A stretch of 64,000 nt of DNA, taken from NCBI RefSeq assembly GCF_030013205.1, contig NZ_CP122648.1; one strand, 5' to 3'. This DNA comes from Escherichia coli (GTDB taxonomy: Bacteria > Pseudomonadota > Gammaproteobacteria > Enterobacterales > Enterobacteriaceae). The notes under the pieces are model-generated. The model did no database searches. It saw only the letters and a list, made by a program, of their open reading frames with translations, and had not been told where the DNA came from. Positions 12,316 through 20,327 of this stretch are shown piece after piece. Every line of letters begins with the position of its first letter. Within the stretch, counting starts at the first letter, position 1. Made by a program: the position numbers and the translations under genes.

Positions 12316-12327
12316 TCCCTTCTTATC

Positions 12328-12390
12328 GTGCCGGAATACATCCCGTATTTCGGCACGCTCACCGGATGCGGCATCAGTGCGTTATCCGGA
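12328..12390. repeat. hairpin plus REP-like palindrome downstream of lnt
   Basis: GTGCCGGAATACATCCCGTATTTCGGCAC inverted repeat followed by ACCGGATGCGGCATCAGTGCGTTATCCGG. Confidence 0.4.
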
Positions 12391-12644
12391 TAACAAAATC
12401 CCCCTATCCAACTTTGGCACATCTATTGCTTTGTTATACAAGGCAAAGCTTGAACCAGCATCAGTACAACCCGGTTGCACCACAGCAATCCACGGGTAGC
12501 ACCAAAAGAGTGCATTTTAAGAATTTTGCTTCGGAATGGTGCGGCGCAACTCGCAAAAACAAACAATAAAACAGCAATATCTTTACATTTAGCCAAACTA
12601 AATGTTACCTAACAGGCACAACACTGCACAATAAAGTTGCAGAC

Positions 12645-12670
12645 GATAACAACACAAACACTCACAACGG
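12645..12670 (+). promoter_or_regulatory. C/A-rich element in the gltI 5' UTR, candidate GcvB sRNA target site
   Basis: GATAACAACACAAACACTCACAACGG lies about 40 nt upstream of the gltI start codon; gltI is a known GcvB target through a C/A-rich element. Confidence 0.35.
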
Positions 12671-12711
12671 GTATCCATGCGTTCTTAACGCAGAAGATAA
12701 AGGAGTTGGAT

Positions 12712-13620
12712 ATGCAATTACGTAAACCTGCCACAGCAATCCTGGCCCTGGCGCTTTCCGCAGGACTGGCACAGGCAGATGACGCCGCCCCGGCAGCAGG
12801 CAGTACGCTGGACAAAATCGCCAAAAACGGTGTGATTGTCGTCGGTCACCGTGAATCTTCAGTACCTTTCTCTTATTACGACAATCAGCAAAAAGTGGTG
12901 GGTTACTCGCAGGATTACTCCAACGCCATTGTTGAAGCAGTGAAAAAGAAACTCAACAAACCGGACTTGCAGGTGAAACTGATTCCGATCACCTCACAAA
13001 ACCGTATTCCTCTGCTGCAAAACGGCACTTTCGATTTTGAATGTGGTTCCACCACCAATAACGTCGAACGCCAGAAACAGGCGGCTTTCTCTGACACTAT
13101 TTTCGTGGTCGGCACGCGCCTGTTGACCAAAAAGGGGGGCGATATCAAAGATTTTGCCGACCTGAAAGGCAAAGCCGTAGTCGTCACTTCCGGCACTACT
13201 TCTGAAGTTTTGCTCAACAAACTGAATGAAGAGCAAAAAATGAATATGCGCATCATCAGCGCCAAAGATCACGGTGACTCTTTCCGCACCCTGGAAAGCG
13301 GTCGTGCCGTTGCCTTTATGATGGATGATGCTCTGCTGGCTGGTGAACGTGCGAAAGCGAAGAAACCAGACAACTGGGAAATCGTCGGCAAGCCGCAGTC
13401 TCAGGAAGCCTACGGTTGTATGTTGCGTAAAGACGATCCGCAGTTCAAAAAGCTGATGGATGACACCATCGCGCAGGTGCAGACCTCCGGTGAAGCGGAA
13501 AAATGGTTTGATAAATGGTTCAAAAATCCAATTCCGCCGAAAAACCTGAACATGAATTTCGAACTGTCAGACGAAATGAAAGCACTGTTCAAAGAACCGA
13601 ATGACAAGGCACTGAACTAA
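12712..13620 (+). CDS. gltI: glutamate/aspartate ABC transporter periplasmic binding protein
   Basis: 302 aa from the ATG at 12712 (RBS AAGGAG), signal peptide MQLRKPATAILALALSAGLAQA; the track ORF starts upstream at 12637. Confidence 0.95.
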   Translation: MQLRKPATAILALALSAGLAQADDAAPAAGSTLDKIAKNGVIVVGHRESSVPFSYYDNQQKVVGYSQDYSNAIVEAVKKKLNKPDLQVKLIPITSQNRIPLLQNGTFDFECGSTTNNVERQKQAAFSDTIFVVGTRLLTKKGGDIKDFADLKGKAVVVTSGTTSEVLLNKLNEEQKMNMRIISAKDHGDSFRTLESGRAVAFMMDDALLAGERAKAKKPDNWEIVGKPQSQEAYGCMLRKDDPQFKKLMDDTIAQVQTSGEAEKWFDKWFKNPIPPKNLNMNFELSDEMKALFKEPNDKALN

Positions 13621-16046: not shown

Positions 16047-16982
16047 ATGGCACTGCCAATTCTGTTAGATTGCGACCCAGGTCATGACGACGCTATCGCA
16101 ATAGTTCTCGCCCTCGCCTCACCAGAGCTTGATGTCAAAGCAATTACGTCTTCCGCCGGAAACCAGACACCAGAAAAAACCTTACGCAATGTTCTGCGTA
16201 TGCTGACCTTGCTTAATCGCACCGATATTCCGGTAGCAGGCGGCGCGGTAAAACCGTTAATGCGTGAGTTGATTATCGCGGACAATGTGCACGGCGAAAG
16301 CGGTCTCGACGGCCCGGCATTACCGGAACCGACGTTCGCACCGCAAAACTGTACGGCGGTAGAGCTGATGGCGAAAACACTACGTGAAAGTGCGGAACCT
16401 GTCACGATTGTTTCTACCGGACCGCAAACTAACGTTGCCTTGCTGCTCAATAGCCACCCGGAACTGCATAGCAAAATTGCCCGTATCGTGATTATGGGCG
16501 GTGCAATGGGGCTTGGTAACTGGACGCCTGCGGCTGAATTTAATATTTACGTTGACCCGGAAGCGGCAGAAATTGTCTTCCAGTCAGGGATCCCGGTGGT
16601 GATGGCCGGTCTGGATGTTACTCACAAAGCACAAATTCACGTTGAGGACACCGAGCGTTTCCGCGCCATTGGCAACCCTGTTTCAACCATTGTTGCCGAA
16701 CTGCTGGATTTCTTCCTCGAATATCATAAAGACGAAAAATGGGGCTTTGTCGGCGCACCGCTGCATGACCCATGCACCATCGCCTGGCTGTTAAAACCGG
16801 AGTTGTTTACCACTGTTGAGCGCTGGGTTGGCGTGGAAACACAAGGGAAATATACCCAGGGTATGACGGTTGTTGATTATTATTATCTGACCGGCAATAA
16901 ACCGAATGCTACTGTAATGGTCGATGTTGATCGTCAGGGCTTTGTTGATTTACTGGCTGATCGTCTGAAATTTTACGCTTAA
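16047..16982 (+). CDS. rihA: pyrimidine-specific ribonucleoside hydrolase RihA
   Basis: 311 aa from [18 protein letters not shown] (nucleoside hydrolase aspartate cluster); the track ORF starts 11 codons upstream. Confidence 0.9.
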
Positions 16983-16988
16983 TCACTC

Positions 16989-17013
16989 GCCGGATGACAT
17001 CACGCCATCCGGC
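16989..17013. other. palindromic hairpin at the convergent rihA/ybeL junction
   Basis: GCCGGATG-N9-CATCCGGC perfect 8-bp inverted repeat in the 44-bp spacer; no U tract. Confidence 0.4.
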
Positions 17014-17026
17014 ACCACTCATTTCA

Positions 17027-17509
17027 TTAAGGCTCGAACGGGCGTCTCTGGAACTGGTCATGACCACATTTCGGGCATAGCGTCAGCACTTCCGGTGTAT
17101 AGATCGGGAGATGGAAGTGACATTTCTCGCAGACCAGATTTCCCAGCCCTACCACTTCTCCGCTGTGATAAACCCCGTGATGATTGAGGTCCTGGAAAAC
17201 TTCGCGCCATTCAAGCTGCGTTTTATCGGTGATGTCTGCCAGCTCCTGCCACAAGCTTTCTTTAATCACCCGCATAAAGACGCTGTCAGACTCTTCTTTC
17301 AGGCTCTCTTCATAGCTCATGGCGAACTCTTCCAGGTCACGTCTGACAGCTCGCGTCAGCTCATCGACTTCGGTTCGCGTTAACTCCCCTGTTTTTATTA
17401 CGCGCTCGCGCGCCTGTTCCACCAGTGCGTCGATATCACGTTCGCCATTGCGCAGGCGTTCGCTCAGTGACGCGACCAGTTCACGGTAATATTGAGCAAC
17501 CTTGTTCAT
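17027..17509 (-). CDS. ybeL: DUF1451 zinc-ribbon protein YbeL
   Basis: 160 aa; C-terminal CEKCHF..CPKCGH zinc-ribbon motif. Confidence 0.9.
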   Translation of the reverse strand: MNKVAQYYRELVASLSERLRNGERDIDALVEQARERVIKTGELTRTEVDELTRAVRRDLEEFAMSYEESLKEESDSVFMRVIKESLWQELADITDKTQLEWREVFQDLNHHGVYHSGEVVGLGNLVCEKCHFHLPIYTPEVLTLCPKCGHDQFQRRPFEP

Positions 17510-17744
17510 CGTTTCATCTCCCGGGTCGTTAACTGACTATAATAATAGACGTTCTTTGTTCCTTGCTTTGCTAATACGCCCACAAACTCTGTAAATTAAT
17601 GTATGAATAATCCGGGCATCATTTCAACGTCGAGTGCGCGAAAGGCTGTTTTGACGCGGACGTTTGGGCTATGCTATGCGGATCTGAAAAACCACCTCAA
17701 ACGCTACTTTTGTAGCCGTAATGAAAACAGGACCACTGGCTGCC

Positions 17745-20327
17745 ATGCAAGAGCAATACCGCCCGGAAGAGATAGAATCCAAAGTACAGCTTCATTGGGA
17801 TGAGAAGCGCACATTTGAAGTAACCGAAGACGAGAGCAAAGAGAAGTATTACTGCCTGTCTATGCTTCCCTATCCTTCTGGTCGACTACACATGGGCCAC
17901 GTACGTAACTACACCATTGGTGACGTGATCGCCCGCTACCAGCGTATGCTGGGCAAAAACGTCCTGCAGCCGATCGGCTGGGACGCGTTTGGTCTGCCTG
18001 CGGAAGGCGCGGCGGTGAAAAACAACACCGCACCGGCACCGTGGACGTACGACAACATCGCGTACATGAAAAACCAGCTCAAAATGCTGGGCTTTGGTTA
18101 TGACTGGAGCCGCGAGCTGGCAACCTGTACACCGGAATACTACCGTTGGGAACAGAAATTCTTCACCGAGCTGTATAAAAAAGGCCTGGTATATAAGAAG
18201 ACTTCTGCAGTCAACTGGTGCCCGAACGACCAGACCGTACTGGCGAACGAACAAGTTATCGACGGCTGCTGCTGGCGCTGCGATACCAAAGTTGAGCGTA
18301 AAGAGATCCCGCAATGGTTTATCAAAATCACTGCTTACGCTGACGAGCTGCTCAACGATCTGGATAAACTGGATCACTGGCCAGACACCGTTAAAACAAT
18401 GCAGCGTAACTGGATCGGTCGTTCCGAAGGCGTGGAAATCACCTTCAACGTTAACGACTATGACAACACGCTGACCGTTTACACTACCCGCCCGGACACC
18501 TTTATGGGTTGTACCTACCTGGCGGTAGCGGCGGGTCATCCGCTGGCGCAGAAAGCGGCGGAAAATAATCCTGAACTGGCGGCCTTTATTGACGAATGCC
18601 GTAACACCAAAGTTGCCGAAGCTGAAATGGCAACGATGGAGAAAAAAGGCGTCGATACTGGCTTTAAAGCGGTTCACCCATTAACGGGCGAAGAAATTCC
18701 CGTTTGGGCAGCAAACTTCGTATTGATGGAGTACGGCACGGGCGCAGTTATGGCGGTTCCGGGTCACGACCAGCGCGACTACGAGTTTGCCTCTAAATAC
18801 GGCCTGAACATCAAACCGGTTATCCTGGCAGCTGACGGCTCTGAGCCAGATCTTTCTCAGCAAGCCCTGACTGAAAAAGGCGTTCTGTTCAACTCTGGCG
18901 AGTTCAACGGTCTTGACCATGAAGCGGCCTTCAACGCTATCGCCGATAAACTGACTGCGATGGGCGTTGGCGAGCGTAAAGTGAACTACCGCCTGCGCGA
19001 CTGGGGTGTTTCCCGTCAACGTTACTGGGGCGCGCCGATTCCGATGGTGACGCTGGAAGACGGTACCGTAATGCCGACCCCGGACGACCAGCTGCCGGTG
19101 ATCCTGCCGGAAGATGTGGTGATGGACGGTATTACCAGCCCGATTAAAGCAGATCCGGAGTGGGCAAAAACTACCGTTAACGGTATGCCAGCGCTGCGTG
19201 AAACCGACACTTTCGACACCTTTATGGAGTCCTCCTGGTACTATGCGCGCTACACTTGCCCGGAGTACAAAGAAGGTATGCTGGATTCCAAAGCGGCTAA
19301 CTACTGGCTGCCGGTGGATATCTACATTGGTGGTATCGAACACGCCATTATGCACCTGCTCTACTTCCGCTTCTTCCACAAACTGATGCGTGATGCAGGC
19401 ATGGTGAACTCTGACGAACCAGCGAAACAGTTACTGTGTCAGGGTATGGTGCTGGCAGATGCCTTCTACTATGTTGGCGAAAACGGCGAACGTAACTGGG
19501 TTTCCCCGGTTGATGCTATCGTTGAACGTGACGAGAAAGGCCGTATCGTGAAAGCGAAAGATGCGGCAGGCCATGAACTGGTTTATACCGGCATGAGCAA
19601 AATGTCCAAGTCGAAGAACAACGGTATCGACCCGCAGGTGATGGTTGAACGTTACGGCGCGGACACCGTTCGTCTGTTTATGATGTTTGCTTCTCCGGCT
19701 GATATGACTCTCGAATGGCAGGAATCCGGCGTGGAAGGGGCTAACCGCTTCCTGAAACGTGTCTGGAAACTGGTGTACGAGCACACAGCAAAAGGTGATG
19801 TTGCGGCACTGAACGTTGATGCACTGACTGAAGATCAGAAAGCGCTGCGTCGCGATGTGCATAAAACTATCGCTAAAGTGACCGATGATATCGGCCGTCG
19901 TCAGACCTTCAACACCGCAATTGCGGCGATTATGGAGCTGATGAACAAACTGGCGAAAGCACCGACCGATGGCGAGCAGGATCGCGCTCTGATGCAGGAA
20001 GCGCTGCTGGCCGTTGTCCGTATGCTTAACCCGTTCACCCCGCACATCTGCTTCACGCTGTGGCAGGAACTGAAAGGCGAAGGCGATATCGACAACGCAC
20101 CGTGGCCGGTTGCTGACGAAAAAGCGATGGTGGAAGACTCCACGCTGGTCGTGGTGCAGGTTAACGGTAAAGTCCGTGCAAAAATCACCGTTCCGGTGGA
20201 CGCAACGGAAGAACAGGTTCGCGAACGTGCTGGCCAGGAACATCTGGTAGCAAAATATCTTGATGGCGTTACCGTGCGTAAAGTGATTTACGTACCAGGT
20301 AAACTCCTCAATCTGGTCGTTGGCTAA
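17745..20327 (+). CDS. leuS: leucyl-tRNA synthetase
   Basis: 860 aa from MQEQYRPEE; HMGH (HIGH-type) and KMSKS class I synthetase motifs; the track ORF starts 8 codons upstream. Confidence 0.95.

Follow-up and report, generated by a model that had tools for sequence, protein, structure and literature searches.

In E. coli K-12, a block of genes lies between rihA and ybeL. In the stretch of E. coli DNA analysed here, a window of 64,000 nucleotides, the same two genes face each other across a spacer of 44 bp that contains a perfect palindrome. This raises the question of whether the junction is the trace of a lost island or an allele in its own right, and of what the palindrome is. Most probably, the site between rihA and ybeL has an old presence/absence polymorphism, of which the window has the islet-free allele, with a degenerate, collapsed hairpin of the REP/BIME type that is likely to be a shared 3′-end structure. 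The anatomy of the junction, the allele frequencies, the mutual exclusivity of the alleles, the similarity of the hairpin arms to REPs, the age of both alleles and the other cargo of the site elsewhere are all matters of observation.

Structure of the rihA–ybeL junction

The junction has the following features, in window coordinates.

16047–16982, + strand: rihA, pyrimidine-specific ribonucleoside hydrolase (311 aa plus stop; tblastn, 100% identity to K-12 RihA over 311 aa)
16983–17026, no strand: intergenic spacer between the convergent genes rihA and ybeL, the islet-free junction (44 bp)
16989–17013, no strand: putative REP-derived hairpin (perfect 8-bp stem, 16989–16996 with 17006–17013; 9-nt loop)
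16990–17026, no strand: segment specific to the empty allele (carriers have 5.2–8.0 kb instead; 7,976 bp in K-12)
17027–17509, − strand: ybeL, DUF1451 zinc-ribbon protein (160 aa plus stop; tblastn, 100% identity to K-12 YbeL; Pfam PF07295)

Both proteins are orthologues of their K-12 namesakes. On the NCBIfam equivalog NF007761, with a cutoff of 433, RihA reaches 643.6 bits; YbeL reaches 299.7 bits on NCBIfam PRK11032, where the cutoff is 183. The gene identities match the RefSeq annotation of E. coli CFSAN018748, which is 100% identical to the window in this region. The stop codon of rihA (TAA) is at 16980–16982 and that of ybeL at 17027–17029 (TTA on the + strand). The sole structured feature between them is GCCGGATG-ACATCACGC-CATCCGGC, which begins 6 nt past the rihA stop and finishes 13 nt before the ybeL stop. 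A direct reading of the sequence thus confirms the arrangement given in a preliminary description of this DNA, with rihA and the convergent ybeL 44 bp apart and a palindrome of 8-bp stem and N9 loop between them.

The breakpoints of the window relative to K-12, read directly from the junction sequences, are located at ~16989/16990 and 17026/17027. The megablast alignments of carrier genomes end at query positions 587–590 (window 16986–16989) and restart at query position 627 (window 17026). About 37 bp are specific to the empty allele, including the whole palindrome, and the two alleles have in common only the ybeL stop region and, past the rihA stop, ~6 nt (CACWCG). A tblastn search found the HscC block to be entirely absent from the window.

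A second difference from K-12 is found between lnt and gltI, where K-12 has an IS5 element (L001, 7083–8063) and neither the window (~12316–12712) nor CFSAN018748 has one. The lnt–gltI spacer of the window contains a REP-like stretch, ccggatgcggcatcagtgcgttatccgg, at ~12361–12390.

The HscC block in carrier strains

In K-12, the stop codons of rihA and ybeL are 7,976 bp apart, in agreement with the ~8 kb of the preliminary description, and the two genes are not adjacent. The interval contains hscC, djlC, ybeU, ybeT, djlB, ybeR and ybeQ. The order and the hscC and djl genes had been given correctly, as had the Sel1 repeats of YbeQ and YbeT, but YbeR and YbeU, which had also been described as Sel1-repeat proteins, are DUF1266 proteins. 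The block therefore combines an Hsp70 (HscC), J-proteins (DjlC and DjlB), DUF1266 proteins and Sel1-repeat proteins. It occupies exactly the junction of the window in ~82% of complete E. coli genomes, whereas the window has none of it. HscC together with the membrane-anchored J-proteins DjlB and DjlC has been described as a third Hsp70 system, with low abundance and a Cd2+ phenotype, and HscC as sporadic in its distribution and dispensable (PMC8215388). No description of the rihA–ybeL polymorphism was found in the literature, only mentions in gene lists and this Hsp70 review.

Part of the K-12 block (L001, 14397–20490) is an old tandem duplication of 2,797 bp, in which djlC-ybeU-ybeT and djlB-ybeR-ybeQ share 72–77% nucleotide identity. 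The basic module looks like hscC followed by a single trio of J-protein, DUF1266 and Sel1 genes, as in the enterobacterial contig L095 (see below). A role of the block as a defence island was considered and rejected, as a scan of eight block proteins against PADLOC-DB gave no meaningful match. Seven of the eight had no match, and YbeQ had one weak partial match (E = 1.2e-4 over ~48 residues).

The palindrome could be an att-like site or a scar, left behind when a mobile hscC island was recently lost. The block is variable among strains and slightly richer in AT than its flanks (46.9% versus 51–53% GC in K-12), and the palindrome lies exactly at the junction, all of which would agree with such a loss. 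Against it, the annotation of the K-12 block contains no integrase or transposase, and no direct or inverted terminal repeats of at least 20 nt were found at its ends. Lacking these and flanking repeats, the block is not a genomic island of the integrase type.

Distribution of the two alleles in E. coli

The two alleles were surveyed in 5,426 complete E. coli genomes. In about 964 of these (18%), rihA and ybeL are contiguous, and a 75-bp junction probe matches 962 genomes. The window is thus in the empty state of a variable islet, as had been proposed, and shares this state with many other strains. The K-12 block is matched in 4,449 genomes, in 3,663 of them over at least 80% of its length. 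The two counts, 4,449 with the block and 964 empty, are consistent with there being no copy elsewhere in the empty strains.

With a 36-nt hairpin probe (E ≤ 10), every empty genome gives one match and the carriers give none. The hairpin and the block are mutually exclusive. The preliminary description had suggested looking for the palindrome on either side of the islet where the islet is present. The block edges of K-12, Escherichia sp. E1V33, E. whittamii and MOD1-EC7003 do not contain it, and the only REP in the interior is a different, canonical one. The palindrome does mark the junction in the sense that it lies inside the ~37 bp specific to the empty allele, but it is not a site of insertion or excision. 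It characterises the empty allele and is no footprint of an island that came or went.

The empty allele is found in diverse strains. The junction is 100% identical to that of the window in ST38 and in pig ETEC/O139 strains, and 97–99% identical in Nissle 1917, 536, ATCC 25922, PMV-1 and APEC O2-211. In HS, it is 87% identical, with a spacer of 39 bp. Strains such as ST38, Nissle 1917, 536, ATCC 25922 and HS represent phylogroups D, B2 and A. Three variants of the empty spacer are observed, two of 44 bp and one of 39 bp.

With these data, a recent deletion scar is highly improbable. A hairpin that occurs in no carrier genome cannot be a remnant of the block ends. Moreover, the same spacer is present in 962 genomes of several phylogroups, and it has co-diverged in a separate Escherichia lineage (see below).

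Among the carriers, ~785 of the 5,426 genomes have short forms of the block (decayed, 5.2 kb) that match 66–71% of its length. In TUM2830 (L087/L094), 5,169 bp of the block are left after a 2.8-kb deletion that took out most of djlB, ybeR and the 5′ part of ybeQ. In NCTC10537 (L088), djlC is frameshifted and ybeU, ybeT and djlB are missing, as if djlC and djlB had recombined. In O157:H7 NE122 (L093), there are internal stop codons in djlC and ybeQ. The short forms represent at least two independent decays, and the block is decaying in several lineages independently.

The hairpin and its relation to REPs

The motif GCCGGATG-N3-20-CATCCGGC occurs once in the 64-kb window and in none of 100 shuffled sequences. 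As RNA of the + (rihA) strand, the hairpin has a predicted folding energy of −14.8 kcal/mol (z = −4.95), and none of 200 shuffled sequences folds as well. On the − (ybeL) strand, G-U pairs lengthen the stem to 11 pairs and the energy is −19.6 kcal/mol. An Rfam scan of 16700–17300 found no family at E ≤ 1.

REPs have been defined as imperfect palindromes of 30–40 nt with a stem mismatch and a GTAG foot (CTAC in the inverted form, iREP), and binding and cleavage by TnpA-REP require both the GTAG and the mismatch (PMC3333891). The hairpin of the window resembles a y-type REP of the Bachellier/Gilson nomenclature (summarised in PMC3333891) in several respects. Its arms, GCCGGATG and CATCCGGC, match the y-type consensus, and it is an extragenic, stable stem-loop between convergent genes and near their stop codons. 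It differs from a y-type REP in that it is only 25 nt long, its stem is perfect, with no mismatch, and its flanks (5′ flank TCACTC, 3′ flank ACCACT) contain neither GTAG nor CTAC. It is also single-copy, as the 36-nt probe matches each empty genome at a single position. In addition, the window has one hairpin rather than the two opposed REPs with a linker that make up a BIME. Since it fails the definition of a REP, it is referred to here as a REP/BIME-derived remnant. Without the GTAG and the mismatch, it should be inert to TnpA-REP.

Some islet-free relatives, namely C. portucalensis (L007), C. youngae (L012) and S. arizonae (L022), have complete iREP-linker-REP units between rihA and ybeL; the unit of C. 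portucalensis reads GCCGGATGGCGCTAACGCTTATCCGGCCTAC-linker-GTAGGCCGGATAAGACGC...CGCCATCCGGC. A multiple alignment pairs the arms of the hairpin with the outer arms of such a unit in C. portucalensis and in S. enterica arizonae. A collapsed form like that of the window is found in Citrobacter sp. FP75, whose rihA–ybeL spacer contains TGCCGGATGG-CGATA-CCATCCGGCA. To judge from these alignments, the hairpin is most likely a collapsed REP remnant, in which the 5′ arm of an inverted REP is joined to the 3′ arm of a REP. It would have originated by collapse of a BIME. This ancestry draws on the similarity of the arms and on their position, and REP arms, being consensus sequences, align regardless of ancestry. 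REPs could also have colonised the spacer independently in different lineages, because Enterobacter fills the same spacer with unrelated repeats.

In the Enterobacter spacers (L043, L046, L050, L059 and L060), the repeat is a different one, present in one to three copies, GCGGCCTGATGCCCTCACCCC...CCCTCTCCC-N3-GGGAGAGGG, and a hairpin, AAAACGGCAAC-N-GTTGCCGTTTT, often comes after it. It seems that the rihA–ybeL spacer has a repeat family of its own in each genus.

The hairpin could instead derive from a REP inside the block. In carriers, a canonical y-type inverted REP, GCCGGATGCGGCGTAAACGCTGCATCCGGC, is located between the convergent genes hscC and djlC (L001, 14346–14375), and its 8-nt arms are shared with the hairpin of the window. 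The hairpin of the window would then be this internal REP, with the DNA on both sides deleted, or else the block would have been built by two insertions around an ancestral REP. The sequence that follows the hscC stop (TAA-ACACGG) is similar to that found downstream of rihA, which is TAA-TCACTC in the window, TAA-(T)ACACG in carriers and TAA-TACAC in Citrobacter. The hscC-djl spacer of L095 has a hairpin as well. However, the shared arms are merely the REP consensus, the loops differ (ACATCACGC versus CGGCGTAAACGCTG) and the 3′ flanks are unrelated. This origin would also need two independent and precise deletions or insertions that end at stop codons, and in Salmonella there is no REP between hscC and djlC. 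We consider it unlikely.

A possible role at the 3′ ends of the rihA and ybeL transcripts

A stable, GC-rich hairpin that lies between convergent genes and near both stop codons could also be a plain bidirectional intrinsic terminator for rihA and ybeL, unrelated to REPs. The stem is GC-rich as expected, but there is no T (U) tract beside it on either strand, and a terminator scan of 16500–17800 found no terminator-like site. Moreover, the arms of the hairpin do not differ from those of the REP consensus, and in related species this spacer contains bona fide BIMEs with which they align. Little probability can be given to this explanation.

As a REP-derived remnant, the hairpin most likely forms a shared 3′-end structure for the rihA and ybeL transcripts, as is the case with REP hairpins. 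In this role it would act as a barrier to 3′ exonucleases and a weak block to transcription rather than as a canonical intrinsic terminator, and it would protect both convergent mRNAs and hinder readthrough. We infer this function at the RNA level by analogy with REPs. REPs located this near a stop codon are reported to affect translation termination, and work by Liang, Rudd and Deutscher in 2015 reportedly concerns REPs near stop codons and trans-translation. In carriers, ybeL is followed by a hairpin with a T-run, which it shares with ybeQ. On the ybeL strand, this hairpin is the reverse complement of GGGCCGGGGAATTTCATTCGGCCC, followed by TTGTTTTT.

The same site in other Enterobacteriaceae

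The neighborhood of ybeL was collected from 80 species and the K-12 proteins were mapped onto it. The set is without E. albertii, E. fergusonii, S. bongori and the E. coli type strain; four loci were too short, and 76 are informative. The gene adjoining ybeL is rihA in 33 of the 76 species and, with rihA absent, gltL in 27, so that 60 have no insert at the site. The hscC block is found in three species, all of them Escherichia, and other inserts in 13. Across loci L016–L082, many Enterobacteriaceae (27 + 6 species) lack rihA, among them Kosakonia, several Citrobacter, Siccibacter, Pluralibacter and Klebsiella; in these, gltL either adjoins ybeL or has only cargo between it and ybeL.

Loci with other cargo beside ybeL are located at the following positions.

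L014: 10552–16827
L018: 10536–18736
L048: 10559–13917
L055, L053, L069 and L077
L032: 5849–6328

The cargo differs among taxa. Citrobacter sp. MGH106 has a chaperone-usher fimbrial operon at the site (6.9 kb), and the 8.6-kb insert of Citrobacter Cu233 is similar to it by the sizes and order of its ORFs. In Leclercia, TpsA/TpsB two-partner secretion genes are present (3.9 kb); Klebsiella oxytoca/grimontii and Silvania have ORFs that are like these secretion genes by size and N-terminus. In Enterobacter quasihormaechei, the site is occupied by an orphan Hcp gene.

Additional DNA is also observed beside a block. In MOD1-EC7003 (L006, 10578–12916), ~2.4 kb lie between ybeL and ybeQ, with an apparently split J-domain gene (DjlC-like, 29% identity) and a gene for a 321-aa protein with a signal peptide, whose family was not assigned. 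Superficieibacter electus (L035, 10591–11547) encodes a 318-aa protein at this site that shares 54% identity with the latter, and Superficieibacter sp. 1612_C1 has a similar 318-aa ORF there (L067, 10593–11549). Uncharacterised secreted proteins are encoded at the site in other taxa as well.

Integration hot spots that work without an integrase, and strain-variable regions between core genes, exist in Enterobacteriaceae. The rihA–ybeL site is like them in having conserved flanks (gltL/rihA and ybeL/leuS) and a different cargo in each taxon. There is no tRNA gene, integrase or attachment repeat at the site, and the window represents its unoccupied state.

A more far-reaching view would make the spacer downstream of ybeL a site of cargo exchange that is marked by REPs or BIMEs, needs no integrase and is in use throughout the Enterobacteriaceae. 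The alleles would then be an ancient and possibly balanced polymorphism, with the HscC block and the empty state both maintained since before the Escherichia lineages diverged, and the REP/BIME would be the substrate of recombination. Exchange would start, for example, from cleavage of the TnpA-REP type or from breakage promoted by the hairpin, and the hairpin of the window would be a processed product. This view is doubtful, and an old polymorphism with a REP-derived hairpin in the islet-free allele is the reading that we retain.

Age of the two alleles

The block is old. When K-12 is compared with E. whittamii, most block genes have dS values of 0.31–0.50, with 0.89 for ybeQ, compared to 0.22–0.58 for the flanks. 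The dN values of the block are 5–30 times those of the flanks, except for hscC, where they are equal. S. enterica subsp. enterica has a related block at the same site, in the order rihA-[412-aa ORF]-hscC-djlC-DUF1266-djlB-DUF1266-Sel1-ybeL, and the spacer upstream of hscC is homologous there. For E. coli and Salmonella, dS of the block is saturated, and the protein identities are 83% for HscC and 46–63% for the others, with 91–95% for the flanks. These values rule out a recent transfer of the block between Escherichia and Salmonella. Judged by sequence divergence, the block has co-diverged with its flanks across Escherichia, and it lies at the same site in Salmonella enterica.

The Salmonella enterica locus has several features of its own. 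The 412-aa ORF in the rihA–hscC interval (L089/L090, 8687–9925) has no match in Pfam, NCBIfam or PADLOC, and there is no equivalent of ybeT. Downstream of ybeL, genes for a sigma-54 activator, KdgT and others are found that are not there in E. coli.

A single-module form, hscC-djl-DUF1266-Sel1, is present in L095 (Logan SRR26188678, 1–9032), with ~77% nucleotide identity to K-12. A decayed 3′ end of rihA is located just upstream of its hscC block, with a cysteate-racemase-like gene to the left. Between the block and ybeL, genes for RibD_C, AlaE and a 315-aa protein of no assigned family are inserted.

The empty allele is old as well. SCPM-O-B-8794, which is labelled E. coli and is empty, has a 39-bp hairpin spacer that differs from that of HS at 3 of 45 positions. 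Its flanks are 6–9% (left) and 3–4% (right) divergent, and by a flank divergence of 5–7% it is about as distant from E. coli as E. whittamii is. The spacer has co-diverged with the flanks in this divergent Escherichia lineage. A transfer of the 39-bp allele from the SCPM-O-B-8794 lineage to HS was considered and rejected, as the flanks of HS are no closer to SCPM-O-B-8794 than those of other E. coli are.

The polarity of the change can be read in two ways. The origin of the block goes back at least to the split between Escherichia and Salmonella, which favors an ancient loss as the origin of the empty allele. The lack of an insert in 60 of the 76 informative species favors ancestral emptiness. 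With an ancient loss, the block would have been lost once and the spacer then occupied by a REP; the alternative is that the spacer from before the insertion was retained.

Probable exchange of the two states between lineages

Nissle 1917 (empty) and TUM2830 (short block) have nearly identical flanks, with a divergence of 0.2–0.3% beyond ybeL and 1.04% inside ybeL. For HS and K-12, the corresponding values are 0.28% further out and 1.45% in ybeL. Two sites in ybeL follow the state of the islet in six genomes, and the empty strain JNE151685 breaks the pattern at site 10. The flanks mostly track the strain background. In this small sample of six genomes and few SNPs, the pattern is the one that would arise if short tracts of homologous recombination swapped the state. 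Homologous recombination in the conserved flanks appears to move the empty and block states from one lineage to another. In the block allele, the HscC/DjlC-DjlB/DUF1266/Sel1 block stands in place of ~37 bp, including the hairpin.

Implications

The rihA–ybeL junction is an ordinary polymorphism in gene content, an indel that is visible in any pan-genome comparison. As a result of it, ~18% of complete E. coli genomes, including the window strain, Nissle 1917, 536, ATCC 25922, HS and ST38, have no HscC, DjlB or DjlC. This absence, together with the decay of the block in other lineages, fits the published view of HscC as a sporadic and dispensable chaperone (PMC8215388). The junction is a clean and easily typed marker for the presence or absence of the block, and the empty strains are natural knock-outs for studying the function of HscC.
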